This document shows, piece after piece, positions 14,878 to 44,122 of a stretch of 64,000 bases of DNA. Source of the stretch: an uncultured virus (IMG/VR IMGVR_UViG_3300043427_003288) (taxonomy: Duplodnaviria > Heunggongvirae > Uroviricota > Caudoviricetes); IMG/VR virus record IMGVR_UViG_3300043427_003288; one strand, given 5' to 3'. A program made the translations under genes and the position numbers. The notes under the pieces were generated by a model that saw nothing but the letters and a program-made list of their open reading frames with translations, was not told where the DNA came from and made no database searches. The stretch's first letter is position 1. Each line of letters begins with the position of its first letter.

Positions 14878-14884
14878 ATTTTAC

Positions 14885-16928: not shown

Positions 16929-16935
16929 TTTTTCC

Positions 16936-16942
16936 GTGTAAA
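16936..16942 (+). promoter_or_regulatory. GTGTAAA motif, putative late promoter
   Basis: Intergenic, begins 25 nt before the tape measure ATG. Confidence 0.5.
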
Positions 16943-16960
16943 TAAGCTAAAAGGTAAAGG

Positions 16961-19900
16961 ATGGCAAAAGGAATCACAGTCCCGGTCACTCAAACTGGAT
17001 TATCGCAATCCATTCAAAATGCGGTTAAGCAAGTTGGCGGAATTAGCGTTCCGGTTGACATTGATTCAAGATCATTCAAAAACCTCTCTCAGCCGCTAGG
17101 AAGAATCACTGGTTTGGCGACTGAGTTCGAAAAGTCAATTGCGGCATCGAATGCCCGTGTTATCGCATTCGGCGCTTCAGTTGGAATTATAAATGGTATT
17201 CAAGGTGCTTTTGCTGAACTACTTAGAACGGGTATAGAGGTTCAGAAGATATTGGCGGATATTGCCGCTATCTCAGGTCAATCTGGGGCAGAACTTTCGA
17301 AGTTTGGCGATTCTATTTTTGATGTCGCAAAAAATACTAGTCAAAGTTTTAAAGTAGCCGCTCAAGCTGCTCTTGAATTCTCTCGTCAAGGCTTGAGTAC
17401 TGATGAGACGATCAGAAGAACAAACGATGCTCTTACTCTTGTAAGATTCACTACATTAAATGCCGCAGAGGCAGTTGATGTTTTAACTGCGGCAACAAAC
17501 TCATTTTCAGACACGGGAATTACAACTTCTGAAATTTTGAATAAGCTTGTTGCGGTTGACACTAAATTCGCGGTTTCGGCGGAAGACCTTGCCAACGGTT
17601 TGGCTCGCGCAGGCTCGATTGCTCAAGAGGTTGGCGTTTCATTCGATGAGCTTAATGCGGCTATTACAATTACTCAAGAGAGAACTGCTCGCGGTGGTGC
17701 AGTAATCGGCAACGCATTAAAAACAATTTTCACAAGACTGAGAAGTGATGAAACAGTCAATGCGTTAAGATCTATTGGCGTAGAGTCTTTAAATGCCCAA
17801 GGGGGATTAAAAGGAGCTATTCCTCTTCTTCAAGAAGTAGCCACAAAGATTGAAAATCTTTCTGGAGGCGAAAGAGTTCAAATTTTAGAGGCAATTGCTA
17901 GCAAGTACAATATCAATATTCTTTCTGCTCTTTTAAATGACTTGAACGCCGCTAACGGTAAGTTTGCCGAGGTTGTTCAAATTTCAGGATCAGCGCAAAA
18001 TCAAGCTTACGAAAGACAAATAGAATTAAATAAAACTCTTGCTGCTCAGATAAATCTTACGACTGTTTCTGTTACTCAGTTATTCAATAAGCTTGCTGAA
18101 ATTGGCGTGACAGAGAGCTTAACAAGCATACTGAAATTCGTTAATGATTTATTGGATGGCTTCAATAAGCTTTTAGACTCGGAAACAACTGGCAGCAACA
18201 TCGCAAAAGGTCTGATCAAAGGCATTTCTGATGTTTTCTTTACTGTCGGTTTGCCAATTATTGGAGCTATCTTTATAAAGCTAACAAAAGATATTGCCCA
18301 ATTCGGCGTTGAGTCTTTAAAAACAATTTTAGGCATTAACCAGCAAGTTAGAGAGCGCCAAGCTCTTGAGCAAGCTGTAGTAAATACTTTGATTAAGGAT
18401 AGAGATGTAATGGCGTCAATTCTTGCCTTGAGTGGAGATAGAGCAAAGCAAGAAGAGTATTTGCTAAATGTTTATAATCGCCAAATTTCTGCTCTTGAGA
18501 GAGTTCAGTCTATAGCAACTTCTGTTGCTCCTGCTTTAGTGCAGGGCGGTCTTTCTGCTACTAGCGGAACTGTACAACGCAGAGCAGCAGACGGATATCT
18601 CCCAGCGCAAGAAGCTGCGGATGTAAAGCGAGGCGTTGGTGGTGCGGACAAGAATGCAAAGGTGGTTAAGATCCCTAATTTCTCTTTTGGTGGTGGCAAG
18701 AAGGGTACAATGTACGCAAATACCAGCGAATATATTGTTCCTAATTATAATGGTGGCGATGGGACTGCTATCTTCAACAAAGATATGGTCAGTAAATACG
18801 GAAAGCCAGAAAATGCTAAAAAGATAAATGCGGCAACAGGGTATATTCCAAATTATATAAAAACCCAGCCTAAAAATATTCAAGCTATTCGTCAAGGTAA
18901 AAAATTTGAACAAAGTTTAAATTTAAAACTATTTGGAGAAGCGTCATATGCAGCTAATGCTGTTTTAGATTTTCCAAAGCCAGAAGGTTTTGGTGCAGAC
19001 TCCGAAGTAAAAAAAGAACTTGGAATAAATCCACAATCAGAGTACGGAGATGCAAAAAGAACCCAAAGCAGAAAAAGCGAAAAGAGTTTATTAGATAAAT
19101 ACCTGAGAACTCCAGAAGGAAGCGCTGAGTTTTTAAATGCAAAAGAAACCGCCAGAGGATTTATAAATTTAAATCCAAAAGGTTTGTCGATGCTATTTTT
19201 AGAACAAGGTCAAGACGCAAAAGAAACCGCTTATCTTGGAACAAAGGAGTCTATTTTATCAGAAAAAACAAAAGATTTGATTAAAACAAAATTTGGAGAT
19301 AAAAAAGCTAGCAAAACTATTGCTATGCCTTATATTGCCGATAAAATAAATAAAAGTGAACTGAGTGCTAAAAAAGCTTCGACTGGTTATATTCCAAATT
19401 TTCAGCAGCAGGCGGTTGGCGAAAAGCAGCTTACCGCAAAAGAAAAGGAATTAAAAACAAAGGCAGAGAAAGTAATAAATAATAGGGTTGGCAATACTTT
19501 TGGTACTGCGGCAATGCTGGTCAAGGATCAAGATGATGAGCAAAAAGTCAGAACAGATAAAACTTATCCTTGGGGTTTTGAGCCAAAAGAGCCAGAAAAT
19601 AAAATATTTGGAAGAGTAAAGTTCCCAGTTTATGGCTTAAAGGATAGTGGATTGCAGCAAGCAAAACTTGGCGCTGTTCCAAAGATCAAAGAGCCATTAG
19701 ATAAAATAGCTTTAGATTTCGGCACTTCTGTTTCTTCAGATCTGGCTGGAAGACAGGTCAGCCAAGCTGAGTATCAACAATCATACAAAAAATCTTTTGG
19801 TGCTGCTGGAGCTTTCGGAGGTGTTGTCGGAGGCATCTTTGAATCTGCCGCAAGAGTAGCTTTTAATTTTGAAAGCGACAAAGTTAATACTTTAGACGTT

Positions 19901-22900
19901 CCAAATATTCCTGATCCAATGCGATTGGCTTTCGGAATAACTGGAGGAGAAAGAAGCGCCGATCTTAAAGGTTCTGTTTCTGATGGCGTTTTAAGAGGGT
20001 TTGCAAGTCAGGCAGTAAAAAATAATTTAGTTAAAGAAGAGGTCAGGGAAATGACTAATGCGCCAAAGAAAGTTGCCGCAAAAGGATTTGTTCCAAATTA
20101 TGCCGAAAAACTTACAGAAATGTATGATTGGGATGGCACTATCATTCCAAAAATCTCAGGAAAGCCCGAAGAATATATTCAGTCGATCCAGAAACTTGAA
20201 AAGAAGGATCTTCTTCCCGTGGGCAAAGAGCTTGCCGCTTCAAAAGAAAAGTTTGATATTGCAACTGCTAGACCAATTGCATTTAAAGATCCAATTAAAA
20301 ATGCAGCCCAAAATCTCGGGCTCAATGTTGAAAAAGTATTTCCTCTTGGATCAATGTTTGAAAATCGCAGGGCTCAAGGCAAAAGAGGTCCGAGAAAACT
20401 TTACACTCCAGAAAGAAAAGCATTATTCGCGGAGAAGACTGGTAGATCTATCGTTGATGATGAAGAAGAGAACTTGATGGCTCTTGGATCTCGCGGCATA
20501 AATGCAAATTTAAGAAATCGCGGCGCTTTTGGGTTTATTCCAAATTTTGCTTCTCAAAACGCAATAGACGCAATGAGAAGAATCGTCTCAGACCCTGCCG
20601 CTCCACAAGGAGAAAAAGATGCAGCGTCGTTAAAACTTTCTCAACTTACAAAAGTAAGTTCATTAAATAATCCAAGAGTTGCGGCGCAAAAGACCACAAA
20701 AATAAAGCTTCCAATAACTCAAGAGGACAAGGACTATCTTAATCAGAACAAGGAAAAAATTGTCGCAGGAATGGGCAGAAGTTTTGGAATGTTATTTAAT
20801 TTAGATGCTTTGGAGATGGGGGATTTAGGCTACGTAAAACGTTTGGATCCAATAGTTGCAAAAAAATTGTCGGAAATAGCGCAAAAACAAGGTGGCAGAG
20901 ATTCTATCAGATCTTTGGTTGATTTTGGATCTGCGGCGAAAGGGTATATTCCAAACTTTGCTGATCCACTGAAAGAGGCTGTTAATAGAGAAATCGCCGC
21001 TGGAATTAATCCCTCTCAGGTGCGCGTAACAAGAGATGATCGTTTAATGACAACCCGCAATCCAGAGGGGCTTGCGGTAATAAATACCAGAGATGAGCCA
21101 AACGGCAAAGTTCCTTCTAACAGAATAAACGAAAAGGATGGCAAAATGGCAGCAAAGGGCTTTGTGCCAAACTTTGCTATTGGTACGCCTAAAGGTGGAT
21201 ATAAAGCCGCAGAATCTTCAACTGGTGAAGCTGTAGGCATACCAAAAGATTTGCAGTCAAGTCTGATAGGATCAGCAAATAGACTTCTAAAACAATTTGA
21301 AGAAGGTGCAATTGACCAATCAAAGCTAAATGTAGCCATAAAAGATTTAGCGGCCAAGAATAATTTAACTGCTGAATCGACAAATAAATTGCAAACTCAA
21401 GTCGATGATTCAATAAAAAGATTTGAAAAGAATAAGGCTAAATCTGGCGGTGGAGGGGTTGGGCCAGACCAAGGCGGCGCTAAAGATGGAAGGTTTTCAT
21501 TAGATAAAACATTTTACGCTTTTTCTGGTCTAACTCTTGCCGCAAATGCGCTTGAGCAAGCTTTTGGAAAATCAGAAAGTGGGCTAGCAAAATTTGCAGT
21601 TGGTCTTGCAAGTGCTACTCAAGCAGCATCTCAAGGAGCGCTTCTGGGTCAATCGTTTGGAGATTTGACAAAAGGCTTGGTTGGAAAAGGCGGCGTTTTG
21701 GGGGCTTTAGGAAAAATTGGTAGCTTTGCTGGCCCTGCTGGTGCGGCTATAGGCTTGGGAGTTGGAATTTTTTCAGAAATTAATGATGTTATCAATGCTC
21801 CTCAAAGAAAAAGGGAAACAGATGCTGAAAAAAGAATAAATGAATTATCTTCTACTGCTTTAGATAAAGCAGATGAATTAAAAATATTTGAGGAGGAAAT
21901 AAGTAAAATACAAGCGCGGCAAAGAGAATTACAGCCTGGTGGGGAGGCCAGAGCACAAACTGCGGCCAATGTAGCTCAACAAAATCCTTTTGCCACTATG
22001 GGATTGGCAATGTCTATGCCAGAGCAGGACAAAAAGGATGATGAAGAAATTTTAAAACTTAGAGTTGATTTAGCGGCTACCGAGAAAAAAAGAAAAGAAA
22101 TTTTAGCAGAAATTGCGGTAAATAAGAAAAAAGAAGAAAGGGCAGTTCAAAGAGAGGCGCAAGAATTAATTAAAAGAGTTGCTTTAACTACACAAATAAC
22201 AGCCTTAAATGAAGCTAATGCCAGAGGGGAAAATGCGGCCTTGGAACTAAGGGCAAAAAGGCAGTCCGATTTAATTAAAAATTCTATTTTTCTTACAGAC
22301 ACCCAAAAACAAAGCCTACAAGACGCTGAAACTTTAACTCAGTTAGACGAAAAAAGAGATGATTTAAAAAAATCAATTCTTTTAAGCACTGTCAAAGAGT
22401 TGGGTCAAGGCAAGCTTACTACTGTTGAGGAGCAAAAATTAAATATCTTAAGAAAAAGGCTAGAAGCAGGAGAAAAAATAACCGATATTGAAAAAGAGTT
22501 AAATGCATTAGGCATTCAGGGAAATAGTGAAGCTGGAATTAAAATTACGAATGCTCTTTCTGAGTTCAGAATAAAAGATGGTCAATTGGTTGTAGAAAAA
22601 AATATCACAAGAGAAAGACAAGCCGCAAACAAAGAGGCAAAAACAGCTTTAGAGATAGAAAAAATAAGATTGAGTTATTTAGAACAGAGTTTTAAAGCGC
22701 AAAAAGAAATTGAAGATATTATGATTGCTGGAGATAGAGCTATACAAGAAGCGCAGTTAAGAACTCCTGTAGCTCAACTAGAAAACCAAATTGCAACTCA
22801 GCCATTCGCTACAAGAGGGCAGGAGGCTCAACTGGCAAAATTGAGAGAAGAATTTGCCAAATTATCCGCTCAAAGAAAAATCGATAATGATTTTGCGGAC

Positions 22901-24703
22901 ATTCAAAGAAGAAATTTTGACGAATTAAAAAATTCGATTATTTCTAATGTTGAAGCCGCAAATGAGCTTAACGGAGAGTTCGTAAAAGGTTTAGTTTCTG
23001 ACGCTAGAAAAGCACAAAGCCTTCAAGATTTAATTAATGTAATATCTGAATTAGAAGAGGCAGAAAAAACTTTGTCTGAAACGGAATCTAATTCAATAGC
23101 TAGGGAGCAAGCTACAAAGACTTTAAATGCAGCTACAGAGGCATTAAGAAAGAATAATTTAAATGTTGCTCAGGCAAAGGTTTTACTTGAAGAATATAAT
23201 AAACAACAGCAAAGGCAGATTGAATTTCGAACAAAGCTAGCTCAGTTAAGAGACGAATCTCCAGCCAAAGCTGGAATGTTCGCAGCATTTAACGAAATTG
23301 AACAAGAGTCTTATAACTTCCAAGAGACATTTGCCAAAAATACCACTCTTGCATTTAGAGACGGAATGAGAGACGCTTTGTCAGCAGCAATCTCTCAAAC
23401 TGATGATCTTGGTGCTGCTTTGCAAGATGTTGCAATGAACTTTTTGAAGACTATGCAGAATGCGTTCTTGCAGCAGGCTTCTAATCAGGCAATGATTGGT
23501 TTGCAGAATGCTTTCCCAACTGTATTTCCAAAAGGTCCGGCTCAAGGAGCTACTGGTGGTTTTGTTAGTGGCGGAAAAATTATAAAAGGGTACGCAACTG
23601 GCGGATTGGTTACTGGGGGTAGCGGATACAAAGACGATGTGCCAGCGATGCTTAGTCAAGGCGAGTATGTTATTCGCAAATCTTCTGTGGAAAAATATGG
23701 CGCCGCAAATCTTGAAAAAATGAACTCTGGGGGAATGCCCAGATTTGCTGCTGGCGGTGATATTTTCCTTCCTGGTGTTCGCGGACAAACCGCAATTTCT
23801 GGCTACAAGGATCTAACTAGATTCGCAAATCAAACTACAACTAGTGGCTCAACAGATGTAATGAAAGGCAGTGGATCTTCTGCGTTCATTAATCTTGAAG
23901 ACCAGAGCATGAGACTTTCAAGGTTCGCCCTTCTTAACGAAGATGATATAGTTAATCAAGAAATTAAATCGGCGCAACAGCAAGGGCTAGATCTAATAAA
24001 ACAAAGAGAAGCTTATAGAACGCAGCAAAGAAAAGCGTTCCAAAAGCAATTGAAGCAAACAGTGATTTCAGCAGCATTGAATGCTGGACTTGGAGCATTA
24101 AGCGCTCCTAGCCCAACAGGTACATACTCTGGAAAAGGAATTGGTTCCGAATTATATTCTCAGAGCAAAATGGCTCCTGGGACTTCTCCATTAAGTACGG
24201 GACCATCATTTTTTAGTTCATCTGGACCAGCTTCTTTTGGTGGATATTCCACTCTAACGCCAAGAGCACCATTTAAGGCTTATGGTGGGTCGATTTCCAA
24301 ATATGCAGATGGCGGTCCAGTTGATAAAATTCCCGCTCTTCTTATGGACGGCGAATATGTAATGAGCAACAAAGCCGTAAAGAAGCACGGAAAGCAGTTT
24401 TTTGATTCATTGAATCAAGGTCGCGCTCCAAGATTTGCCAACGGCGGCGAAGTTGGAGGCGGCGGTGAAATGCTGGGCGAAAAGTTTGATAATCTTTCCA
24501 GCAAGCTAGAAACGAGGGGAGCACCAGAAGTTAATATCACCGTCAACGTAACAAGCTCTGGATCTTCAGAAACTAAAGCTCAAGGTGAATCAGCCCAAGG
24601 CGGCATAGACTATAAGAAAATGTCAGAAAAGATTAAAGCTGTAGTTCTCGAAACCATTAACGAGGAAAAGCGCTTGGGCGGATCGCTGAGATCAGGTAGA
24701 TAA
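16961..24703 (+). CDS. tail tape measure protein (TP901-type core) with inserted globular domains
   Basis: N-terminal core (AALEFSRQG, AVSAEDLANGLARAGS, GAVIGNALKTIFTRL), long coiled coil, C-terminal xAxGG and D.VPA.L..GEYV repeats. Confidence 0.9.
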   Translation: MAKGITVPVTQTGLSQSIQNAVKQVGGISVPVDIDSRSFKNLSQPLGRITGLATEFEKSIAASNARVIAFGASVGIINGIQGAFAELLRTGIEVQKILADIAAISGQSGAELSKFGDSIFDVAKNTSQSFKVAAQAALEFSRQGLSTDETIRRTNDALTLVRFTTLNAAEAVDVLTAATNSFSDTGITTSEILNKLVAVDTKFAVSAEDLANGLARAGSIAQEVGVSFDELNAAITITQERTARGGAVIGNALKTIFTRLRSDETVNALRSIGVESLNAQGGLKGAIPLLQEVATKIENLSGGERVQILEAIASKYNINILSALLNDLNAANGKFAEVVQISGSAQNQAYERQIELNKTLAAQINLTTVSVTQLFNKLAEIGVTESLTSILKFVNDLLDGFNKLLDSETTGSNIAKGLIKGISDVFFTVGLPIIGAIFIKLTKDIAQFGVESLKTILGINQQVRERQALEQAVVNTLIKDRDVMASILALSGDRAKQEEYLLNVYNRQISALERVQSIATSVAPALVQGGLSATSGTVQRRAADGYLPAQEAADVKRGVGGADKNAKVVKIPNFSFGGGKKGTMYANTSEYIVPNYNGGDGTAIFNKDMVSKYGKPENAKKINAATGYIPNYIKTQPKNIQAIRQGKKFEQSLNLKLFGEASYAANAVLDFPKPEGFGADSEVKKELGINPQSEYGDAKRTQSRKSEKSLLDKYLRTPEGSAEFLNAKETARGFINLNPKGLSMLFLEQGQDAKETAYLGTKESILSEKTKDLIKTKFGDKKASKTIAMPYIADKINKSELSAKKASTGYIPNFQQQAVGEKQLTAKEKELKTKAEKVINNRVGNTFGTAAMLVKDQDDEQKVRTDKTYPWGFEPKEPENKIFGRVKFPVYGLKDSGLQQAKLGAVPKIKEPLDKIALDFGTSVSSDLAGRQVSQAEYQQSYKKSFGAAGAFGGVVGGIFESAARVAFNFESDKVNTLDVPNIPDPMRLAFGITGGERSADLKGSVSDGVLRGFASQAVKNNLVKEEVREMTNAPKKVAAKGFVPNYAEKLTEMYDWDGTIIPKISGKPEEYIQSIQKLEKKDLLPVGKELAASKEKFDIATARPIAFKDPIKNAAQNLGLNVEKVFPLGSMFENRRAQGKRGPRKLYTPERKALFAEKTGRSIVDDEEENLMALGSRGINANLRNRGAFGFIPNFASQNAIDAMRRIVSDPAAPQGEKDAASLKLSQLTKVSSLNNPRVAAQKTTKIKLPITQEDKDYLNQNKEKIVAGMGRSFGMLFNLDALEMGDLGYVKRLDPIVAKKLSEIAQKQGGRDSIRSLVDFGSAAKGYIPNFADPLKEAVNREIAAGINPSQVRVTRDDRLMTTRNPEGLAVINTRDEPNGKVPSNRINEKDGKMAAKGFVPNFAIGTPKGGYKAAESSTGEAVGIPKDLQSSLIGSANRLLKQFEEGAIDQSKLNVAIKDLAAKNNLTAESTNKLQTQVDDSIKRFEKNKAKSGGGGVGPDQGGAKDGRFSLDKTFYAFSGLTLAANALEQAFGKSESGLAKFAVGLASATQAASQGALLGQSFGDLTKGLVGKGGVLGALGKIGSFAGPAGAAIGLGVGIFSEINDVINAPQRKRETDAEKRINELSSTALDKADELKIFEEEISKIQARQRELQPGGEARAQTAANVAQQNPFATMGLAMSMPEQDKKDDEEILKLRVDLAATEKKRKEILAEIAVNKKKEERAVQREAQELIKRVALTTQITALNEANARGENAALELRAKRQSDLIKNSIFLTDTQKQSLQDAETLTQLDEKRDDLKKSILLSTVKELGQGKLTTVEEQKLNILRKRLEAGEKITDIEKELNALGIQGNSEAGIKITNALSEFRIKDGQLVVEKNITRERQAANKEAKTALEIEKIRLSYLEQSFKAQKEIEDIMIAGDRAIQEAQLRTPVAQLENQIATQPFATRGQEAQLAKLREEFAKLSAQRKIDNDFADIQRRNFDELKNSIISNVEAANELNGEFVKGLVSDARKAQSLQDLINVISELEEAEKTLSETESNSIAREQATKTLNAATEALRKNNLNVAQAKVLLEEYNKQQQRQIEFRTKLAQLRDESPAKAGMFAAFNEIEQESYNFQETFAKNTTLAFRDGMRDALSAAISQTDDLGAALQDVAMNFLKTMQNAFLQQASNQAMIGLQNAFPTVFPKGPAQGATGGFVSGGKIIKGYATGGLVTGGSGYKDDVPAMLSQGEYVIRKSSVEKYGAANLEKMNSGGMPRFAAGGDIFLPGVRGQTAISGYKDLTRFANQTTTSGSTDVMKGSGSSAFINLEDQSMRLSRFALLNEDDIVNQEIKSAQQQGLDLIKQREAYRTQQRKAFQKQLKQTVISAALNAGLGALSAPSPTGTYSGKGIGSELYSQSKMAPGTSPLSTGPSFFSSSGPASFGGYSTLTPRAPFKAYGGSISKYADGGPVDKIPALLMDGEYVMSNKAVKKHGKQFFDSLNQGRAPRFANGGEVGGGGEMLGEKFDNLSSKLETRGAPEVNITVNVTSSGSSETKAQGESAQGGIDYKKMSEKIKAVVLETINEEKRLGGSLRSGR

Positions 24704-25473
24704 TGAAATCTTCCGTATCAAATTATGAGAGCAATTTTTACCTCAGTGGCGTCAAAATACTTGGCGTTTCTGATGTAAATTTTGGCTATTCAGTTCCTGT
24801 TGAGCATTTAAGCGTCATTGGCTATAGAAAGTTTAATACTTTTATAAGCGGTCCGCCTCAAGGGAATTTGAGCGTTCAAAAATACTTGTGCCAAAATGAT
24901 CATATTTTAAATTATACTGGAGCAATACAGGCGAGCGGCGGCTTATTCTATAATAATAAAAATTTTACTTTTCAATCCGCTTATTTAAATTCTTTTAATG
25001 TTTCCTGCGCGGTGGGCAACTTTCCTCAGTTATCTGCCGATTTCTCAATATTTGGCAACGTGGGAACTGGACTTGGATTTACGACTAGTTCTACAAGTAA
25101 TCCTTTATCAGTTGTTAGACCGGGCGATATTTTAATTCGATGCGATGGTACAGGAACAAATAGAGTAGAAGCCTTCACTTATACTGTGGAGTGTCCGCGC
25201 ATGCCCATTTACCACCCAACTGGATCAACTCCAATGGAAGTGGAAACGATTAGACCATATAGAGTTAGCGCCCAATTTACTCTTGGCGTATACGATTACG
25301 AATCAAAAAGAGCTTTTGATTATATTGTAGACTCAAATAAGCAAAATATTAATATAGCTATAGGGTCATTAGCCACCTTTACTGTTAATAATATGGAATT
25401 CATAGGAGAATCAATCAATAGCTCCGCTACGGACGAGGTCTCCATGACGCTTAATTATCAGGGATTTATCTAA
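24703..25473 (+). CDS. tail-tube-like tail tip protein
   Basis: Immediately after the tape measure gene; strand pattern resembles the tail tube protein. Confidence 0.55.
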   Translation: MKSSVSNYESNFYLSGVKILGVSDVNFGYSVPVEHLSVIGYRKFNTFISGPPQGNLSVQKYLCQNDHILNYTGAIQASGGLFYNNKNFTFQSAYLNSFNVSCAVGNFPQLSADFSIFGNVGTGLGFTTSSTSNPLSVVRPGDILIRCDGTGTNRVEAFTYTVECPRMPIYHPTGSTPMEVETIRPYRVSAQFTLGVYDYESKRAFDYIVDSNKQNINIAIGSLATFTVNNMEFIGESINSSATDEVSMTLNYQGFI

Positions 25474-27134
25474 TGTCTTTCTTTTACGACAGAGACCAAA
25501 ATGTAACTGGGACAATTCCTTCGTCCTTTACTTTTGTGCCTTCGTATGGAATGCAAGTCTCATTCTCTTCTGAGCTTGCAGAATACACGACAGTTGACAA
25601 TTATCTTTATACAATCCCAAAGGCAGTTAATCATTTGCAAATGCAAATTGCTATGCCTTTTGAAAACAGAAAACAAGAAGAAGCAAGAAAGCTTGCTGGA
25701 TTTTTCGAAGGCTTAAACGGCACAGGGTATTTTTTATATACAGATCCAGCGCAGATATATAAGCCTCTTAATTTATTTTTAAATAGTATAGATAATTCTT
25801 TTGTTGAAAATGATCTATATACATTAGGTGCGACTTTATCTACAGATCAAATTTCAACCGTTTTAAATTGGAATCAGCCACTGATAACAGGCTCAAATAT
25901 AAAAGGTAATTGGGCAACTTCAACAAGCTATCAGAAGTATGATGTTGTAAGATATACAGGGAATGCTACATTTCCAAGCAATACAGGTAATCTATACGAT
26001 TCATTTTATTACTGCAAAGAGGCTCATACTTCTCAATCGTCAATTACTCCAGCTTCGGTTGATACGGTAAAATGGTCAAAGGATTTTTTCTTTCAGCCAA
26101 CTTATTCCACACCGCTTTCGAAAGAAAGCGCCGTGATAAAAACTGAACTGCCTTATTCGTTTACAAAAAGAACAAATTTTGGTTTGCACGCAAACGCATT
26201 AAAGTCTTTTAAACTAGATTTTAAGGGGGTAAGTGATGCCGAGGCTAGATGCATTCTTCACTTTTTAATAGGTAGGCAAGGGTACAAAAGGTTCCAGTAT
26301 AAAATACCAAAAATATATAACCAATTCAAGATATTTTATGCGCCGCAATGGAGTCATACTTTTGTTTATAAAAATGTAAATGATATATCGGTGACTTTGA
26401 TTGAAGATCCTCTTGGCAGGGTCAGCGAAGATATTACTAGTATATCTACTAATGGATTAATGTGTTATCTAGATCCATCTAATAGGGCTTCATATAGAAG
26501 TGGAGTCACTGTTTATGATTTGAGTGGGTCTGTCAACTCTGGAACACTGTATAATGGAGCAACGTTTGCTTCTAGAAATAGAGGTGTTTTTTCTTTTGAC
26601 GGGACTGATGATTATGTATCCGTAGCCTCCCCAAGTAATAAATTTGCTTGGAATCCAACTTCTACTTCAACTTTAAATAGCATAAGTATAGAGATATGGG
26701 TAAAGACGAGCGATACTGTTGGAAGAATAGTCTCTAAGCCTTGGAATGCAAATGGGGGATACAATTATTGGGTAGATGGTAGCGGCTTTGGCATAACTCC
26801 TGGCACTTCTTCTTATGTTCTTCCATGCACTTCTTTTGCTACAGGAAATTGGGAGCATTTTGTATATATTGCGACACCAACTCAGCTTTCTGTTTATAGA
26901 CGAGGAGTTTTAGACGCAGGTCCAGTGAATCATGGATTAAATGAAAACCCTCCAGCGAACAATAGTAATTTAAATCTCGCAATAATGACTTTATTTCCGT
27001 ATGAAGGGTCATTTGATTTTCCGAGCCATGCTATAGCTGGAGAACTTGGCGCTTTTAGATTCTACAATCGCGCTTTAACCCAAGAAGAAATAATTACCAA
27101 CTTTAACGCAGGAAGAGATAGGTTTAAAATTTAA
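25473..27134 (+). CDS. minor/distal tail protein with a carbohydrate-binding-like insert and C-terminal LamG domain
   Basis: Duplicated F.F.P.Y...L.F......EAR....F unit; W.....Y...DVV.Y...YYC..AHTS insert; LamG from about 26440. Confidence 0.6.
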   Translation: MSFFYDRDQNVTGTIPSSFTFVPSYGMQVSFSSELAEYTTVDNYLYTIPKAVNHLQMQIAMPFENRKQEEARKLAGFFEGLNGTGYFLYTDPAQIYKPLNLFLNSIDNSFVENDLYTLGATLSTDQISTVLNWNQPLITGSNIKGNWATSTSYQKYDVVRYTGNATFPSNTGNLYDSFYYCKEAHTSQSSITPASVDTVKWSKDFFFQPTYSTPLSKESAVIKTELPYSFTKRTNFGLHANALKSFKLDFKGVSDAEARCILHFLIGRQGYKRFQYKIPKIYNQFKIFYAPQWSHTFVYKNVNDISVTLIEDPLGRVSEDITSISTNGLMCYLDPSNRASYRSGVTVYDLSGSVNSGTLYNGATFASRNRGVFSFDGTDDYVSVASPSNKFAWNPTSTSTLNSISIEIWVKTSDTVGRIVSKPWNANGGYNYWVDGSGFGITPGTSSYVLPCTSFATGNWEHFVYIATPTQLSVYRRGVLDAGPVNHGLNENPPANNSNLNLAIMTLFPYEGSFDFPSHAIAGELGAFRFYNRALTQEEIITNFNAGRDRFKI

Positions 27135-27135
27135 T

Positions 27136-30100
27136 ATGGGCAGACCAATTTCATACGAAATGCAGATGATGTTTGTGGGCTCTGTTGGAGCTTTTGAAGA
27201 GGCCATGAACACAGGCAGCGGAATTAGCCGCCTTGATTTTATTCAAGGCTATGATTTTTCTTTTAATATAGACAGACCTGCGCTGAAACAAATTGGCTCC
27301 GATTCTTTTGCAACAAGACAAACTCAGTTCGCTCCAGATGTTAATTTTAACATTCAATATCTTTTGAACGATGGCTGGAATGAGAAATATATTGGATTGG
27401 ATATACCACAAGGAAGCTTGTCTAACCCATTTGATACAATTCTTTCTTCAACTGGAGATCGAAACTTTTATGTAAGCGTGGCAAAAAATGATGGCAAAGA
27501 CCAGAATTTGCAAAGCGAAATTGTTAATAGTAATATTTTATCGATAGGCAATGCTTATATCAGCAGTTATGAAATTAGCGTAGCTGTAAATCAGCTAGCA
27601 ACAGTCTCCTGCTCTTTTGTCGGCTCAAATGCCAGTGTTCAAGATTATGAAACTTCTAAGTATTTGCCATCTGTAAATAGTGCCGTTACTGGTCAAAACG
27701 CCGAAGATGCTAATAAAAAATTTGCTCTTAAATTCTTAAATAATAATAGAAATCAAGCCTATATTCCAAAAGCTACTGAAACTTTTGCAGGAGGTTGTCC
27801 GTATAGCAAATGTAAAATAACTCCAGATTTCCAATCTGATGGAGTGAAGTCTCCAATTACTTTTGGGTTTTTTGACGCTGTTGCAAATAACTTTCAAAGT
27901 ATGCAGTTTGCTGTTCAGTTTGAACGGAAATCTCTTTATGGGTTTGGGAACAATCATCCATACGGTAGAAAAATTCAAAGGCCAATAGTTGCAACTTTAG
28001 CATTGTCGGCGCTGATTGATGATTTTCAGGCCGAAAATTTAAGCAAAGTTTTTCATAACGAAGGTTGGTCAAAAAGTTCTATCTTGATAGAATTCTTTAA
28101 TTTGTCTGATGTTAAGAAGTTTACAATATCTTTAAATAATTTAACTTTAGAGTCTTATTCGCTAGGAGCAAGGATTGGGGATAGGGTTTTGGTAGACACT
28201 AATTGGACAGTTGAAGTTAATAATGGGGGTGGGTCAAATGTAGAGATGGGCGGCTCTTATAGATATGGGACTCTTGATGTCACGCTTGTTAACGAGTCTT
28301 TTTCCATGCCTCAATTTCTTTCACAAATTGTTAGTGTTGCCGGATTGCCTTATGCGATAACTAAAGATGGCAATTTATTTTCTTGGGGTTTTTTCGCACA
28401 AACGCCTGCTTCAGACGCTGGAATAATTCCAAGAAAAGTTTTTAATAGAAGTGGCGTATCGTTGCTTGCAGATAGCTCTGGTTATTCTAGAATGTTTTTA
28501 GATAAAAACGGAAAAGCTTGGGCATGGGGAGATAATTACTATGGGTCGATTGGAGACGGAACAGTAATTTCTAGAAGTTCTCCTGTTTCAGTAATTGGAA
28601 ATAAAACATTTTGTCAAATAGCGACCAATTCATTTACTTCTTTTGGGGTTGATAAAAATGGAACAGCTTGGGGATGGGGAAGGACGCCTTTTGTTGGAAT
28701 AAACGTTACTACTGAAGGTTGTACGATTTCTCCAGTTCAAATTCTTAATTATGCGCCTTATGTTCCTTATACAGTTTGTTTTTGTAAAATATCTGTGGGC
28801 GATAGGTTTGCTTTGTGCATAGATCAAAATGGTAAAGCTTGGGGCTGGGGGGCGAATGACAATGCTCAATTAGGGATTGGTAGCATTAATGCTGGATGGG
28901 CACTCTTAAAACCAGTTTGTGGCAACAAAACGTTTTGTAAAATATCCGCTGGGTATGATCACTCGCTAGCCATTGATAAAAATGGAAAAGCGTGGGCTTG
29001 GGGCAGGGGAGACATAGGATCAGTTGGTGGTGGTGTATTAAAATGCACTCCAGTTGCAGTTTCTGGAAATATAACATTTTGTCGCATTAGCGGTGGATTT
29101 TTGAATTCTGGAGGTATTGATAAAAATGGAGAAGCTTGGCAGTGGGGAGGCGCAGTATCTCAGTATCCACTTAAAGTATCTGGTAGTAAAAAAACATTTT
29201 GTCAAATAAAAGCCGCAGGGTCTGTCTATTATGCTATAGATAACAATAATAGAGCTTGGGGCTGGGGAGATCCAAGAAATGGAAAGTTTGGCAATCCTAT
29301 ATTCGCAAATCGTAGAACGCCAACGGCCATAGGCGGCTCAACTAAAACTTTTTGTAAAGTATCAGCGCTTGTAGCTATTGATAAAAAAGGAAAAGCTTGG
29401 GCGTGGGGATATAATGAATACGGGTCGGTTGGGGATGGTTCTACGTCAATAAGATGTACGCCAGTTTCAGTTTACGGAAATAAAACATTTTGTGAAATAG
29501 CGAGCCTAGCAAACAGTGTATTAGCAATAGATAAAAATGGTAAAGCTTGGGGCTGGGGAAATAATTCACTTGGACAGTTGGGAGATGGGACATCAATTAA
29601 TAACTTGACCCCAGTTTCAGTTTATGGAAACAGAACATTTTGCAAAATAGCTAGTGGAGGCTCTACATCTATCGCTATTGACAAAAATGGTAAAGCTTGG
29701 GGCTGGGGGTTTAATTACTATGGGCAGGCTGGTATTGGTCAAGGAATTGAAGTTTCCTTAACTCCAATGTCAATAGTTGGAAATAAAACTTTTTGTCAAA
29801 TATATAATCTAAACATTGGGACTTTTGGAATTGATAAAAATGGCAAGGCGTGGGGTTGGGGATATAATTATGGAGGAGAGCTTGGAGTAGGAGCAGGATC
29901 TTATTCGAATAATTATTCTCCATTAGAAGTACTGGGAGGCAAAACTTTTTGTCAAATATTTTATGGAGGATCAAGCTCTATCGGTCTTGATAAAAATGGA
30001 AAAGTTTGGTCATGGGGTCCATATCCTACAAATATAGGTACTAATGAATATGGAGATCCTTTAGAGTTTGTTGGTTCTCCAATGGCTGTTTGCACAAACA

Positions 30101-30396
30101 AAACATTTTGTAAAATAGCTTGGGACGGAGGTTCAGTTTTAGCCACTGATAAAAACGGCAGAACTTGGGCTTGGGGATCAGATTATTATAATACTTTGTC
30201 AATTGGCGGCGGTTATTCCGCAACTCCAAAATCAATTAATGGAGATAAAACATTCAATTACATAAATATGAACGGTGCCACTTCTGCTGGCATAGATATA
30301 AAAGGAAGATTATGGACATGGGGAGATTTTTATAGAGCCCAATTAGGACAAGGAATCCCAATGACAGATACTCCTGTTAGGATATATAATTTCTAA
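27136..30396 (+). CDS. tail-tube paralogue fused to a 14-repeat RCC1-like propeller
   Basis: First ~390 aa align by eye with 11778-12941; 14 DKNG-type repeats from about 28306. Confidence 0.75.
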   Translation: MGRPISYEMQMMFVGSVGAFEEAMNTGSGISRLDFIQGYDFSFNIDRPALKQIGSDSFATRQTQFAPDVNFNIQYLLNDGWNEKYIGLDIPQGSLSNPFDTILSSTGDRNFYVSVAKNDGKDQNLQSEIVNSNILSIGNAYISSYEISVAVNQLATVSCSFVGSNASVQDYETSKYLPSVNSAVTGQNAEDANKKFALKFLNNNRNQAYIPKATETFAGGCPYSKCKITPDFQSDGVKSPITFGFFDAVANNFQSMQFAVQFERKSLYGFGNNHPYGRKIQRPIVATLALSALIDDFQAENLSKVFHNEGWSKSSILIEFFNLSDVKKFTISLNNLTLESYSLGARIGDRVLVDTNWTVEVNNGGGSNVEMGGSYRYGTLDVTLVNESFSMPQFLSQIVSVAGLPYAITKDGNLFSWGFFAQTPASDAGIIPRKVFNRSGVSLLADSSGYSRMFLDKNGKAWAWGDNYYGSIGDGTVISRSSPVSVIGNKTFCQIATNSFTSFGVDKNGTAWGWGRTPFVGINVTTEGCTISPVQILNYAPYVPYTVCFCKISVGDRFALCIDQNGKAWGWGANDNAQLGIGSINAGWALLKPVCGNKTFCKISAGYDHSLAIDKNGKAWAWGRGDIGSVGGGVLKCTPVAVSGNITFCRISGGFLNSGGIDKNGEAWQWGGAVSQYPLKVSGSKKTFCQIKAAGSVYYAIDNNNRAWGWGDPRNGKFGNPIFANRRTPTAIGGSTKTFCKVSALVAIDKKGKAWAWGYNEYGSVGDGSTSIRCTPVSVYGNKTFCEIASLANSVLAIDKNGKAWGWGNNSLGQLGDGTSINNLTPVSVYGNRTFCKIASGGSTSIAIDKNGKAWGWGFNYYGQAGIGQGIEVSLTPMSIVGNKTFCQIYNLNIGTFGIDKNGKAWGWGYNYGGELGVGAGSYSNNYSPLEVLGGKTFCQIFYGGSSSIGLDKNGKVWSWGPYPTNIGTNEYGDPLEFVGSPMAVCTNKTFCKIAWDGGSVLATDKNGRTWAWGSDYYNTLSIGGGYSATPKSINGDKTFNYINMNGATSAGIDIKGRLWTWGDFYRAQLGQGIPMTDTPVRIYNF

Positions 30397-40646: not shown

Positions 40647-41744
40647 TTAAATGGTACGCAAAGTGTTACAAATTTTCTCAACTGTATTTTCGTAAGTGAA
40701 ATTCTGTCCCAATTTAATACCAGCTTGATTAAGTACTTTATTTTCAGCAAGGGCTACCGCTTTTTGAATAGCTTGAATAGCTTCATCTTCATTAAAATCA
40801 TAAATATTACCTTGATTGAACTCAGAGCCTTTCTTAAAGAAAGCCCCATCATAAGCTTCAATTTTGCCGCTTGGCTCAACAAGTATAGCATTGTCTCTAG
40901 TGGCCCAATCTTTGTGACTTGTTGCGTTAAGCACAACGCTCCACTTGCCGAGGCAAGTCGCGTTGAAAGCTGGTAAGCCCCAACCCTCTGCCCCACTTAA
41001 GCCGCTAAGATCAATATCGGCTGAGTTTAAAATATCATTAACTTCTGAATTAGTGGTCACAAACGGAAGCACGTTAATATTGCTAGCCATTTGTTTGTAT
41101 GAAGCTATGACCTTTTGAGTAAAGTCTTTTGGAAGAAATGGGTTAATGATAGAACAAGTAAGCTGAAACTTTGGATTGTTTCCATAAAGCTTTGCCCACA
41201 TTTTAACAATCTTATCTGTGTGTTTTCGTTTTTCGAACTTGCCCATTAGCAAAAAGTTAATCTTTCCATCTAAATACTTTTTGCCAGTAACGTGAAAGTC
41301 TGGGTCAAATCCAAGTGGCACGCTTTGCACGTTCTGATTGCCAGCGCCAATAAAAGAATTTGCTGCGTAAGAGCTTGAAAATAAAGTTACATCTTGAAGA
41401 CCAACTATTGCTTTTTCTGCAACAGTTGGCTGATCAAGTTCGTAAAAAGTCAGTAACGCCTGACGAGAAGTCATTCTCTTCTCGGCTCCATTGATATGCC
41501 AAAGTTTTAGGGTAATAGCGTCTTTTGATAGATTGGTGAATCTGCTATCAATTAAGCTTTTTACCCAAAGGGTAAAATCCTTTGGCATTTTGTCGAAAGC
41601 GGACAATTCAACATTTCCAATTGGAAAGTACGAAACCTTAAAACTAGGATCTTGCTGTACCTTCTTAAAGAGAACCTTTAAGATGTTATAGGTTACGTTT
41701 CCAAAGGAAACTTGATTCAATGGAGCTTCGAAGAGAATATTCAT
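40647..41744 (-). CDS. GT-B glycosyltransferase (GT4-like)
   Basis: GKFEKRK, SGAEGWGLPAFNA..LGK. Confidence 0.75.
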   Translation of the reverse strand: MNILFEAPLNQVSFGNVTYNILKVLFKKVQQDPSFKVSYFPIGNVELSAFDKMPKDFTLWVKSLIDSRFTNLSKDAITLKLWHINGAEKRMTSRQALLTFYELDQPTVAEKAIVGLQDVTLFSSSYAANSFIGAGNQNVQSVPLGFDPDFHVTGKKYLDGKINFLLMGKFEKRKHTDKIVKMWAKLYGNNPKFQLTCSIINPFLPKDFTQKVIASYKQMASNINVLPFVTTNSEVNDILNSADIDLSGLSGAEGWGLPAFNATCLGKWSVVLNATSHKDWATRDNAILVEPSGKIEAYDGAFFKKGSEFNQGNIYDFNEDEAIQAIQKAVALAENKVLNQAGIKLGQNFTYENTVEKICNTLRTI

Positions 41745-42169
41745 CAGATTGGAACTTCGTCTTCGTCAGCTTCTACAGGAGCAGGCTTTGCTGGCGCCTT
41801 TGCTACTGTTCTCGCGGCTGCTCTTGGGGCGGGAGCGGCATCTTCAGTCTCAGCTCCGTCCTTCTTCTTGCCTCCAACAAAGTTTACTCTATCTGCGACA
41901 ACGAGAATTTTAGTCTTTTTCTCTCCGTTCTTTTCCCAAGAGTCTTGCTTAAGGCGACCAATGACTGATACGCTGCTGCCCTTCTTTACGTGAGTTGTGA
42001 CAAACTCAGCTTGCTTCTCCCACACATCGACATCGATGAACACCGTATCCTTGTCGTTGATTGGGTTGTTGACTGCCAGACGGAAAGAAGCGATACTCTT
42101 TCCAGTTGAGGTGCTGCGGGCCATTGGCTCCGCAACAACGTTTCCTGCGAGGACTACTGAATTAATCAT
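41744..42169 (-). CDS. ssb: single-stranded DNA-binding protein
   Basis: NSVVLAGN, FRLAVN, KKGSSVSVIGRL..DSWE, acidic tail DEDEVPI. Confidence 0.95.
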   Translation of the reverse strand: MINSVVLAGNVVAEPMARSTSTGKSIASFRLAVNNPINDKDTVFIDVDVWEKQAEFVTTHVKKGSSVSVIGRLKQDSWEKNGEKKTKILVVADRVNFVGGKKKDGAETEDAAPAPRAAARTVAKAPAKPAPVEADEDEVPI

Positions 42170-42743
42170 TTTTTTTAACGTAGGTTTTTTTAAGCTTTTT
42201 GAAGGCTAGGTTGTGAATATTGATACAGCCTTGAATCGATAAGTCAAGCTCTTTTGCAATTTTTCTCCAAGGAGTTAGCTTTTTCTTTTCTGAAAAATAT
42301 CTCATTTTAAATATTTTTTCAATTCTTTTGTCTTCTAAAGTCGAAAGTTGAGCAAGGATATCGCGCAACATTTCTTGCTCTGCTAATTCCTTCGGCTCTG
42401 AACTCTCAAACTCGCAATCAAAATTTTCTTCCATTGGTAAGTGGCGACGCTTATTTGATGAGTTTAAACAAAGCCATCTTGTGTGATTTCCAAGATAAGT
42501 CGAAAACTTGATATTGCGTTTTTCATCGAAGGTTTTCACGGCATCAAAAATATTTGATTCCTTATTCGACATTAAATCATAAAAATTATCAATAGCAGTT
42601 TCTCTTGGAGCATAACTGTGAACCATCTGCAAATAAATGCCAGAATGTCTGTTGACGATCTCCATGAAGCAATCGCTATCGCCACTCTTTTTAACCTTTT
42701 GGATCAGGTCAAGATCGTCCATTTTTTCTGGAATTAATCTCAT
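42162..42743 (-). CDS. phage RNA polymerase sigma-70 family factor
   Basis: Region 2 AVKTFDEKRNIKFSTY; region 4 HTH IFKMRYF..WRKIAKELDLS..I.N.AFKKLK; start may be a few codons downstream. Confidence 0.8.
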   Translation of the reverse strand: MRLIPEKMDDLDLIQKVKKSGDSDCFMEIVNRHSGIYLQMVHSYAPRETAIDNFYDLMSNKESNIFDAVKTFDEKRNIKFSTYLGNHTRWLCLNSSNKRRHLPMEENFDCEFESSEPKELAEQEMLRDILAQLSTLEDKRIEKIFKMRYFSEKKKLTPWRKIAKELDLSIQGCINIHNLAFKKLKKTYVKKND

Positions 42744-43210
42744 TTTCCTGTGCTTCCAAAGCCGCCAAGACCTCTTTCGGAATCATCCAATGATTCGGTT
42801 TGATGAGCCACAAAATTAAAAATTGGCATGAACATCAACTGCCCAATCTTATCTCCTTTTTTATAAATCAAGGAATTCTTGGTTGGCTTGCCTTTGCCGA
42901 GGTAGCGGAAGCGGAGCTTGATCGAGGCGCGATACCCATTGTCGATTACGCCAACAGAATTGCAAAGCGCCAAATGATATTTACTTACGCTAGATCTTGG
43001 AAACAAAAGAGTGAAAAAGCCATCTGGTGGTTGAATTGCAACTCCCGTGTCGTACTCGATATACAAAATTTTCTTACCTGCTTCGTCCAAGTAAACAAAA
43101 GTTGGATCTTCTGCCGCTACGAGATCCCATCCCGCATCGCCCTTTGCTGGGGGAATCACGTTATTTTCGAAACCATTTTTGAGAACTTTGAACGATAGGT
43201 TTGTCTGCAT
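42740..43210 (-). CDS. dut: trimeric dUTPase
   Basis: AGWDL, PRSS, GVIDNGYR, GDKIGQL, RGLGGFGSTG motifs. Confidence 0.95.
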   Translation of the reverse strand: MQTNLSFKVLKNGFENNVIPPAKGDAGWDLVAAEDPTFVYLDEAGKKILYIEYDTGVAIQPPDGFFTLLFPRSSVSKYHLALCNSVGVIDNGYRASIKLRFRYLGKGKPTKNSLIYKKGDKIGQLMFMPIFNFVAHQTESLDDSERGLGGFGSTGK

Positions 43211-43245
43211 GTTCGTACTTTGCCTGAGATTCTAAACTTTGTCAA
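43211..43245 (-). promoter_or_regulatory. sigma70-like promoter, leaderless geometry
   Basis: TTGACA-N17-CAAAGT-N6-ATG on the minus strand. Confidence 0.5.
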
Positions 43246-43302
43246 GAGGTTTTCAACCAATCACGGCTCGGCGTAATTTAAAAAACGAAGTTTTTTAAAT
43301 TT

Positions 43303-43416
43303 AAAGAAAAGGGGGGTACGGGGGTCAAGGGTGGGGCGGGGGATAATAGGGGGGAGAGTATGAGAGGGGGGAAAGAAGGGGGCGGGGAGGGATAGGGGGA
43401 AGGGGGGAAAAACAAA
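43303..43416. repeat. G-rich polypurine mirror repeat (12 G-runs)
   Basis: G-run lengths 6,5,3,4,5,6|6,5,4,3,5,6 around AGAGTATGAGA, centre 43360. Confidence 0.9.
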
Positions 43417-43420
43417 AAAG

Positions 43421-43427
43421 GTGTAAA
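43421..43427 (+). promoter_or_regulatory. GTGTAAA motif, putative late promoter
   Basis: Begins 24 nt before ATG 43445. Confidence 0.5.
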
Positions 43428-43444
43428 TAAAAAATAGCCCCAAG

Positions 43445-44122
43445 ATGAGAATCTTCAGATTTAAAATTAGCATTTTCGCCGCAATTCTTTGCACGATTGT
43501 AACAATTGGGGCCAATTTTGTCTTCAAATTTCTGGATAAAAATTATTTTTATAAACACTACTTACCGCAAAACGAAGTTCGGCCATTAGAACCAAAGATA
43601 GAAACAAACAAAAAAGATTACTTTTATTTATCGATTGAGCCGCCAGAAAAGAAAACTTTCTTTATTCAGTCTTATGACTCTGAGTATTTAAAGCAGTCTT
43701 TAATAAAAAATGGCCTATCTCCAGAAACTGCAATCATACTAAGAGATGAAAAATATTCATTGGTTGATGCTGAATGGTTCGATAGTTATGCAGATTGGTG
43801 GGCAAATTTCTTAGAAAAAAACTACATATCATTCGAAAATGATACGTTCGATTGTGACAACTTTTCTGATCTTTTCATGGTTATATTTGGCCTATCAAAT
43901 ACAACTTCTATATACAAATCTAACGCTCAATTAGCCTGCGCTACAATCATTGTAAACAACGTATATTCTTTCGCGGGCATACCCGCGCAGGAGGACTCTT
44001 GGCACTCTCTTAACCTAGTTTGGACAAACTCTTCTTGGTTTGTTATAGAGCCGCAGAATGGAGTGTATATAAGCCTAGATTCATATCCTAACAAAAAGCA
44101 TATAAAGGCAGTCATATTTTAG
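43445..44122 (+). CDS. membrane-anchored papain/transglutaminase-like protein
   Basis: N-terminal hydrophobic helix; FDCDNFS, HSLN, IEPQN suggest a Cys-His-Glu triad. Confidence 0.6.
   Translation: MRIFRFKISIFAAILCTIVTIGANFVFKFLDKNYFYKHYLPQNEVRPLEPKIETNKKDYFYLSIEPPEKKTFFIQSYDSEYLKQSLIKNGLSPETAIILRDEKYSLVDAEWFDSYADWWANFLEKNYISFENDTFDCDNFSDLFMVIFGLSNTTSIYKSNAQLACATIIVNNVYSFAGIPAQEDSWHSLNLVWTNSSWFVIEPQNGVYISLDSYPNKKHIKAVIF

Follow-up and report, generated by a model that had tools for sequence, protein, structure and literature searches.

The window analysed here, 64,000 nucleotides (nt) of an uncultured virus (IMG/VR record IMGVR_UViG_3300043427_003288; Caudoviricetes), is a portion of a large tailed phage genome and contains a 97-base G-run element whose forward and backward readings are nearly alike. 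Tail genes, among them a 2580-amino-acid (aa) tape measure, occupy the plus strand up to position 39840. The element lies further to the right, in a 234-bp gap between two divergent operons. The leftward operon carries dUTPase and SSB genes; the rightward plus-strand block begins at 43445 and reaches UvsX, DnaB, primase, exonuclease and DNA polymerase, with UvsX, DnaB, primase and polymerase sitting 9–16 kb to the right of the element. From left to right, the gap holds a minus-strand promoter-like site, a GC inverted repeat, an AT palindrome, the G element, an A-rich stretch, the motif GTGTAAAT and the ATG at 43445. CheckV completeness of two relatives (43 kb estimated as 30%, 67 kb as 46%) suggests a whole genome of ~145 kb.

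The element comprises 12 G-runs at 43311–43407, with lengths of 6, 5, 3, 4, 5, 6 on the left and 6, 5, 4, 3, 5, 6 on the right of a mirror centre at 43360 (Table 1). A preliminary description made from the letters of the sequence had reported this symmetry, and its run lengths, its spacers and its count of 28 matches among the first 32 positions outward from 43360 all proved correct when recounted; over the full ungapped comparison 36 of 49 positions match. Its limits, 43303–43416, took in A-rich flanks in addition to the G-run element itself. We confirmed that the mirror repeat is far from chance: the best ungapped mirror has 32 matches in 40 positions (500 shuffles: mean 22.6, maximum 30), and the gapped mirror score is 30, compared with a maximum of 23 in 300 shuffles that preserve runs and spacers. 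The tract is also, as had been claimed, the only one of its kind in the 64 kb. Of 36 G-runs of at least 5 in the window, 8 are inside the element, and canonical G-quadruplex (G4) motifs (at least four runs of G3 or more, loops of 1–7 nt) occur in the window within the element only, with starts at 43311–29 and 43366–85 and a G4Hunter mean of 2.34 over the tract. C-runs of 5 or more are absent from the element region and number two in the window (at 11737 and 61504). Pyrimidines are unevenly distributed, with 9 in the 49 nt of 43311–43359 (5′ arm) versus 3 in the 47 nt of 43361–43407 (3′ arm). An Rfam search of the window gave no family at the gathering threshold and only chance-level matches around the element, and a search of GenBank phages returned a single weak match away from the element and none for two other motif-bearing loci.

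The exact 23-nt centre was found in 8 IMG/VR contigs, 6 of them with unrelated flanks. Contigs of close relatives hold the whole element with differences of 1–2 nt, and Logan contigs from two freshwater runs belonging to different studies (X1 record 7 and X2 record 13) bridge the tract. At least 13 IMG/VR contigs of relatives end inside it at positions that are scattered over the tract, and we therefore read these ends as assembly failure at a hard sequence, not as genome ends. The contigs concerned are L009, L011, L013–L016, L022, L023, L039, L045–L047 and L053, the tail of L013 consisting of unrelated letters; assemblers systematically break large phage genomes at the G element. Two further sources were not used for inference: contigs of X6, which end at 43317 and restart at 43389, and the RNA run X20, in which the tract is uncovered. 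The tract had been described as apparently non-coding, and this holds, because close strains are separated by indels of 1–2 nt that exclude coding and break the minus-strand open reading frames (ORFs) running across it.

Relatives were located via the neighbouring dUTPase, the right-hand ORF and the element centre. Six lineages (A–F; dUTPase identity ~72–100%, measured for A–D) hold the element at the same divergent junction, each with a mirrored run pattern of its own. Counted from the centre (lineage D is cut off by a contig end), run lengths on both arms are 6, 5, 4, 3, 5, 6 in lineage A, 7, 5, 3, 3, 5, 3 in B and 6, 5, 3, 4, 4 in C. In lineage E they are 8, 6, 3, 4, 5 on the left and 9, 6, 3, 4, 5 on the right for L042, 8, 6, 3, 4, 6 and 8, 6, 3, 4, 7 for L044, and 7, 5, 3, 4, 6 on both arms for L101; lineage F has 6, 5, 3, 3 on both arms, then one more run on the right. 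With six variants pooled, the left and right runs agree in length in 30 of 31 pairs (r = 0.993), and permutation of the run order within each element gave an equally good match in just 0.6–8% of cases. A matched change on both arms is seen between L044 and L101, where 8, 6 becomes 7, 5 on each. All lineages have 8–12 runs of G3 or more. The loop varies by lineage (TAT, TCT, CAC, TCC) and the arms are kept; the inner spacer ATAATA is identical in A, B, E and F, and is ATTATA (complement TATAAT) in C.

Since the arms of a mirror repeat are not complementary, no templated correction can equalise them, and selection on symmetry is the simplest account of their agreement. Conservation of the symmetry in related phages had been proposed as a check, and across the six lineages it is kept through changes on both arms. 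The comparison thus lends good support to selection for a triplex-compatible pseudo-mirror repeat, which we consider probable. The element appears once per genome: no other G5-N1-8-G5 pair was found in the 43-kb record matching the left part of the window, nor in the 67 kb that follow the element on its right side in lineage B. It occupies one of two divergent junctions in the window, the other gap (14878–15223) being ordinary in composition, and one of five in the 127-kb record G004, where it lies at 37 kb, 78 kb from TerL.

The two arms differ systematically in their pyrimidines, of which each lineage has 8–11, mostly T, in the 5′ arm and 1–3 in the 3′ arm. In direction-neutral scoring, a 5′-arm T stands opposite a 3′-arm A at 8 positions in the window and the reverse occurs once; for five lineages the T:A versus A:T counts are 8:1, 7:2, 9:0, 8:1 and 7:0. 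All 18 elements scoring at least 18 lean the same way, including the unrelated L190 (4:0) and L183 (5:0), neither of which was selected by a T-containing pattern. When the 5′ arm is taken as the third strand of a triplex, 41–44 of 47–48 positions give canonical triads, as against 36–39 in the reverse assignment; in the window, G·G, A·A or T·A account for 41 of the 47 positions aligned. The asymmetry follows the triad rules (G·GC, A·AT, T·AT) of H-r DNA, an intramolecular triplex of the purine motif, and fits such a fold with the 5′ arm as third strand. The element has mirror order with a short spacer (a 3-nt loop and equal run lengths), a 3′ arm that could serve as homopurine·homopyrimidine acceptor duplex and a 5′ arm that as third strand would give G·GC, A·AT and T·AT. 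It does not have a strict H-y or classical H motif, the 5′ arm containing 9 pyrimidines in 49 nt, and by the triad rules the T's of this arm would mismatch in either H-y isomer. The triads that make up H-r DNA are CG*G and TA*A, and TA*T is ‘also well-tolerated’; the structure requires Mg2+ and has been observed in E. coli plasmids at raised supercoiling or transcription, with H-r3 as the prevailing isoform at physiological supercoiling (PMC11667243). RNA does not adopt the purine motif (Holder et al. 2015, PMC4666352), which argues for an element that works at the DNA level. The preliminary description had spoken of a selected non-B DNA structure; selection is strongly supported by two-arm co-variation in six lineages and by the T/A asymmetry, and the fold is one that we infer from the sequence.

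Larger look-alikes were found in other phages. In G006 (complete, 61.8 kb) and its relative G008 (GC ~0.6) the arms are 28–29 nt long, with G/T on the 5′ side and G/A on the 3′ side; if the 5′ arm is taken as the third strand they score 25 and 22, versus 11 and 14 when reversed. Iterons follow the 3′ arm, and in G006 the distance to the start of a gene for a DnaB-like helicase, at a divergent junction, is 420 nt. The G006 genome (L200–L201) carries a single 6038-aa ORF at 10059–28175 on the minus strand. The inner 17-mer GGGGGATWATAGGGGGG occurs at no fewer than 112 IMG/VR loci; among the matches listed, to which the following counts refer, 20 distinct mirror elements score at least 18, 4 from the clade of the window and 16 from other phages with GC of 0.37–0.66. 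Nearly all of these 16 have equal run lengths on the two arms, and 10 overlap an ORF. Eight of the overlapping ORFs were tested (the other two run off their contigs), and four, in L518, L485, L509 and L482, match replication-initiation or primosomal PHROGs. DnaB lies next door in L519 and L506, a primase-helicase gene is 1.1 kb from L491, and L444 has nothing of the kind; neighbours of the look-alikes include Erf, RecT, RusA, RuvC and exonuclease. Iterons are placed directly 3′ of the purine arm in all six iteron-bearing elements (L518, with four 11-bp units, and L509, L482, L183, L190 and L526). A metagenome scan with the 17-mer yielded ~11 further such elements among 114 loci analysed, about 100 of the loci being chance or other contexts.

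Because elements of the same build lie elsewhere with iterons in initiator genes or beside DnaB, our analysis favours an origin role as the best-supported function, and we hold it to be somewhat probable. Among the functions offered in the preliminary description, origin is accordingly the one with most support, which comes from the iterons, initiator genes and DnaB of other phages. The more specific proposal, that a supercoil-driven purine-motif triplex acts as the unwinding and helicase-entry part of the phage replication origin, may well be right, and we regard the case for it as balanced. Negative supercoiling would accumulate, supplied in the window by two divergent promoters and in lambda-like phages by the initiator bound at iterons. 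The 5′ arm would then unpair, at a cost that its TA-rich spacers should lower, and its G/A/T strand would fold back on the 3′-arm duplex to give a triplex stabilised by Mg2+. Some 45 nt of the C-rich strand would be left unpaired beside the AT-rich palindrome, as a loading place for helicase and primase. An easily unwound tract (the AT palindrome) and replication genes in the vicinity (SSB, UvsX, DnaB) are both present in the window.

Several observations weigh against this proposal. The window has no direct repeats of the kind that mark iteron-type origins (no iterons were found in 42900–43900), and no initiator gene was recognised in it. Cumulative GC skew, for which an inflection at the element had been anticipated, rises through it with no turn in the window and in G004; the missing turn is weak evidence, since skew in phages largely follows transcription. 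All that we say of the fold, its formation and its isomer included, is deduced from the sequence, as is the use of the window copy as an origin. Cellular K+ favours G-quadruplexes in such a G-rich strand, and the T/A rule implies donation of the 5′ arm (H-r5), whereas H-r3 is reported as usual (PMC11667243). Half of the tested ORFs overlapped by look-alikes (four of eight) have no family match. Some look-alike loci were chosen by a pattern already holding 2–3 T in the 5′ arm, and unbiased support for the T/A rule comes from the clade of the window, from G006 and G008, and from L144. Counts from the collection scans are lower bounds, not unbiased samples.

The 23-nt core on its own also has a distribution that an origin role does not explain. 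The mirror arrangement is specific: with its arms in the order GGGGGGAGAG-NNN-GAGAGGGGGG the core occurs at a minimum of 65 IMG/VR loci, and a control in which the arms form a direct repeat gives 0. The loop does not begin with A at 19 or more IMG/VR loci, and a family of at least 46 has the loop AGG; with a free 3-nt loop, the core arms occur at 120 loci or more in genomes of bacteria and archaea. The 23-nt form lies just upstream of terS in the family of at least 46 loci, as it does in L002, L005, L006 and L007. In Oscillospiraceae-type elements the short core adjoins ParB genes, or lies 90 nt before an actin-like ParM; such a locus could be the centromere or origin region of a mobile element. 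Chromosomal copies often have a pyrimidine complement on the same strand, i.e. are ordinary triplex-type repeats, and some are plain purine microsatellites.

Some of these short forms have a conserved context. Members of the terS family (at least 46 loci, within L055–L173, L211, L262 and L320) have GGGGGGAGAGAGGGAGAGGGGGG between an extended –10-like TGnTAnnnn and the terS ribosome site, with GTGACG..CGTCAC palindromes upstream of the –10-like element; L211 is a divergent junction. In L212, L222, L244, L249 and ~33 similar loci, the core has the loop TGT and sits in a conserved frame of ~100 nt near ParB-like or ParM genes. Metagenome contigs L327, L387, L414, L366 and L369 contain a 33-bp tandem unit with CCCCTTGGGGGGATTATAGGGGGGTTGCC, repeated head to tail at contig ends and unrelated to the phage element.

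A wider version of the triplex origin can be formulated, which we consider unlikely: many unrelated tailed phages would use a triplex-locked origin whose unpaired C-rich strand offers a –10 hexamer that is already melted. The T-bearing 5′ arm would be driven onto the purine 3′ arm when the initiator binds or by divergent transcription. The exposed hexamer would be TATAAT, the complement of the widely shared ATTATA spacer, or TATTAT in the window, and host RNA polymerase, or helicase with primase, would load there without a separate melting step. The conservation of the ATTATA spacer is partly built into the search pattern.

Positions of all features in and around the gap are collected in Table 1.

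Table 1. Genes and sequence features at and around the G-run element (window coordinates)
Feature	Position	Strand	Remarks
Minus-strand block: glycosyltransferase, SSB, 193-aa ORF, dUTPase	after 39840	–	
SSB	41744–42169	–	1.1 kb left of the element
193-aa ORF	42162–42743	–	between SSB and dUTPase
dUTPase	42740–43210	–	first gene of the leftward operon
Promoter-like TTGAAA-16-TAGAAT	43229–43256	–	faces the dUTPase operon; 10/12 matches
Short GC inverted repeat (ACG..CGT)	43263–43274		
Perfect AT-rich palindrome AATTTAAAAAAC-GAA-GTTTTTTAAATT	43275–43301		
5′ (left) arm	43311–43358	+	G6 TAC G5 TCAA G3 T G4 C G5 ATAATA G6 AGAG; putative third strand (reverse-Hoogsteen)
Left G-runs	G6 43311–16, G5 43320–24, G3 43329–31, G4 43333–36, G5 43338–42, G6 43349–54	+	
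ATAATA spacer	43343–43348	+	C-rich strand TATTAT; mirror partner AAAGAA 43372–77
23-nt core GGGGGGAGAG-TAT-GAGAGGGGGG	43349–43371	+	
Loop TAT	43359–43361	+	mirror centre 43360
3′ (right) arm	43362–43407	+	GAGA G6 AAAGAA G5 C G4 A G3 ATA G5 AA G6
Right G-runs	G6 43366–71, G5 43378–82, G4 43384–87, G3 43389–91, G5 43395–99, G6 43402–07	+	
GTGTAAAT, recurrent promoter-like motif	43421–43428	+	17 nt before ATG 43445
225-aa ORF	43445–44122	+	no family match; opens the rightward block

Directly left of the element, a perfect AT-rich palindrome of 10–12 bp is found in all six lineages, with a different sequence in each. Palindromes were counted per sequence; RNAalifold missed the AT palindrome, the alignment being one column off. 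Lineages B, C, E and F have in addition a GC stem of 4–5 bp with a loop of GGA, GAA or AAA (GCGAAGC type). The minus-strand promoter-like site overlaps a TTGACA at 43240–45, and its hexamers are kept in other lineages as judged by eye. It is this TTGACA that the preliminary description had noted as a promoter to the left of the element; it is there, on the minus strand. The GTGTAAA noted on the right side is likewise present, and turns out to be a recurrent gene-proximal motif and not special to the site: 7 of 10 copies in the window lie 7–25 nt before start codons. Lineages A, B, C, E and F all retain a motif of the GTGTAAAT type ahead of the right-hand gene.

The same triplex might have a transcriptional job instead, as a supercoil sink or sensor between divergent promoters and an early-to-middle switch by which the early leftward operon and the rightward promoter of the GTGTAAA type would be coupled or timed. 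The position of the element, 55 nt from the sigma-70-like minus-strand promoter and 13 nt from the recurrent promoter-like motif, would suit such a role, as would a weakly sigma-factor-like ORF in the leftward operon, the short core lying between an extended –10-like element and terS in the family of at least 46 loci, and the induction of H-r DNA by transcription in E. coli plasmids (PMC11667243). Yet only one of several divergent junctions per genome has the element, its distance to the right-hand motif ranges from ~6 to 57 nt among lineages, and in lambda-like phages it lies inside initiator genes with iterons, not at promoters. We regard a transcriptional job as possible but doubtful; the early–late switch that had been offered as an option is thus a weaker rival of the origin role.

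The sigma-factor-like ORF is the 193-aa one between SSB and dUTPase. Its matches to sigma-factor and transcription-regulator PHROGs are weak (E 2.8e-5 to 3.6e-4), and it has no Pfam match; its product may read the recurrent TGTAAATA-like motif. Genes in the window lack Shine-Dalgarno sequences, and the GGTG of GTGTAAA as such a sequence was ruled out by its spacing and by AGTG variants. In the form (G)TGTAAA(T/A), the motif precedes ~9 starts by 7–25 nt (e.g. 3819, 14885 on the minus strand, 16936, the 30426 region, 44122, 51452 and 61626), and it resembles the T4 late promoter TATAAATA. A second arrangement, CTTGACA-N16/17-hexamer-N6-start codon, is common to three genes (upstream of 42740–43210 on the minus strand, 51940 and 57704); this geometry would yield leaderless mRNAs, and the 13-mer AACCTCTTGACAA is common to two of the three. 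A hexamer followed by G6 as a plus-strand promoter was rejected as a general explanation: other contexts share no –10 before G6, and gene orientation varies. Away from the element, matches to RCC1-like repeats (phrog_4219, 7220 and 16766) were seen in several large virion-region proteins, at 6563–8860 and 27136–30396 in the window and at 5225–9938 in G004.

A different structure, one or more G-quadruplexes in the G-rich strand with possibly an i-motif opposite, could serve as origin, R-loop anchor or block, and the symmetry would then be incidental. The 12 runs of at least G3, which form the sole canonical G4 motifs in 64 kb and have counterparts (8–12 runs) in every lineage, the high G4Hunter value and the frequent breaks of assemblies within the tract speak for it. 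Mirror order, equal run lengths, the purine-only 3′ arm and the T-for-A rule are not required by G-quadruplexes, yet all four are conserved, and the GGGGGGAGAG-N3-GAGAGGGGGG arms recur with just two runs. G-quadruplexes had been put forward in explanation of the tract; since a G4 requires no symmetry, they are not supported as the reason for it, and we judge this account improbable. An array of protein sites, at which an initiator, a nucleoid protein or a phage factor would read G-tract shape and the symmetry would reflect the geometry of the complex, seems to us no easier to accept. A fold by itself would call for less conservation than the inner spacers ATAATA and AAAGAA show, and origins usually act via bound proteins; a protein with two-fold symmetry, however, predicts inverted and not mirror repeats, the G-runs are all on one strand, the T/A asymmetry is left unexplained, and phages whose initiators and iterons are unrelated have elements of the same build.

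That the element signals packaging, a terminus or a stop of injection, or is a polar barrier to replication forks, is very improbable, and the packaging option of the preliminary description is accordingly another of the weaker rivals. At least 13 contigs of relatives end in the tract, the short core lies just upstream of terS or TerL in several phages, and polymerases are stalled by H-r motifs (PMC11667243). The scatter of these ends resembles assembly failure, however, other contigs and the Logan contigs bridge the tract, and TerL is ~78 kb away in G004. That the tract is an assembly or sequencing artefact has a practically negligible probability: G-rich tracts are error-prone and break assemblies, but many IMG/VR assemblies contain this one independently of each other, Logan contigs from two other studies contain it too, and its variation is orderly.

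Known since the 1980s, H-DNA has figured chiefly as a hazard that stalls polymerases and causes instability, and a selected function for it has long been an open question, above all in prokaryotes. The evidence presented here is akin to the covariation that reveals RNA helices: run lengths shift together on the two arms, and T stands opposite A in one arm alone. If both the fold and the origin role were true, the element would provide a natural example of functional H-DNA that experiments can address, represent a new type of unwinding element at origins and furnish a simple motif with which to locate origins in uncultured phages. A triplex-locked origin, if real, would for the first time give an H-DNA element a defined physiological role under selection, and would supply a sequence rule with which to find phage origins. 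In the literature on mirror repeats, H-DNA and triplexes in phages or at phage origins we found no description of such an element, and triplex DNA is called ‘far less characterized in prokaryotes’ in a 2026 review.

Among known systems, H-r DNA shares with the element the mirror order, the purine-rich strand and the CG*G, TA*A and tolerated TA*T triads; Mg2+ and negative supercoiling drive the fold, and half of the pyrimidine strand is left unpaired, as proposed here (PMC11667243). The known cases are simple repeats, Gn, (GA)n and (GAA)n, studied for instability and polymerase stalling (PMC11667243), whereas the phage element is a complex 97-bp single-copy pattern with symmetric co-variation across lineages. 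Its asymmetry, moreover, suggests that the 5′ arm is the donor, in contrast to the isoform reported as usual, H-r3 (PMC11667243).

The BoxC/PIT/TMECO repeats (Holder et al. 2015, PMC4666352) are similar in their purine-motif blocks of G-runs with AG/GA, in a 3-nt loop and in the T of the reverse-Hoogsteen block opposite A (GGGGAGAGGG TTA GGGTGAGGGG), and the chromosomal 23-nt core copies with a pyrimidine block in cis look like this class. A repeat of this class, however, has three consecutive blocks in a single strand, ordered Y-R-R or R-R-Y, of which the pyrimidine block is complementary to a purine block; its stems are of 9 nt, and there are many copies per genome (PMC4666352), whereas the phage element has no pyrimidine block, arms of ~47 nt and a single, phage-borne copy. 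The third block is missing from its surroundings too, there being no C-run of 5 or more in the region and flanks rich in A/T. TMECO is reported to have been found linked neither to phages nor to plasmids (Holder et al., PMC4666352).

G4 motifs at regulatory regions and origins resemble the element in their dense runs of G3 or more on one strand, reflected in its very high G4Hunter score; the mirror order, equal runs, purine-only 3′ arm and T-for-A rule that distinguish it are not G4 requirements. The remaining comparison is with origins of the lambda type, in which the initiator gene contains iterons and an adjacent, easily unwound tract, with the gene for the helicase or its loader downstream. 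The window copy differs from these in being intergenic, without iterons, and in a phage of ~145 kb with T4-like replication genes, and the mirror tract is G/C-rich and symmetric, not merely A/T-rich. In L518, L509, L482, L485 and G006, however, mirror elements stand beside iterons, in or beside initiator-like ORFs and DnaB, and these look-alikes occupy the place of the unwinding tract of lambda.

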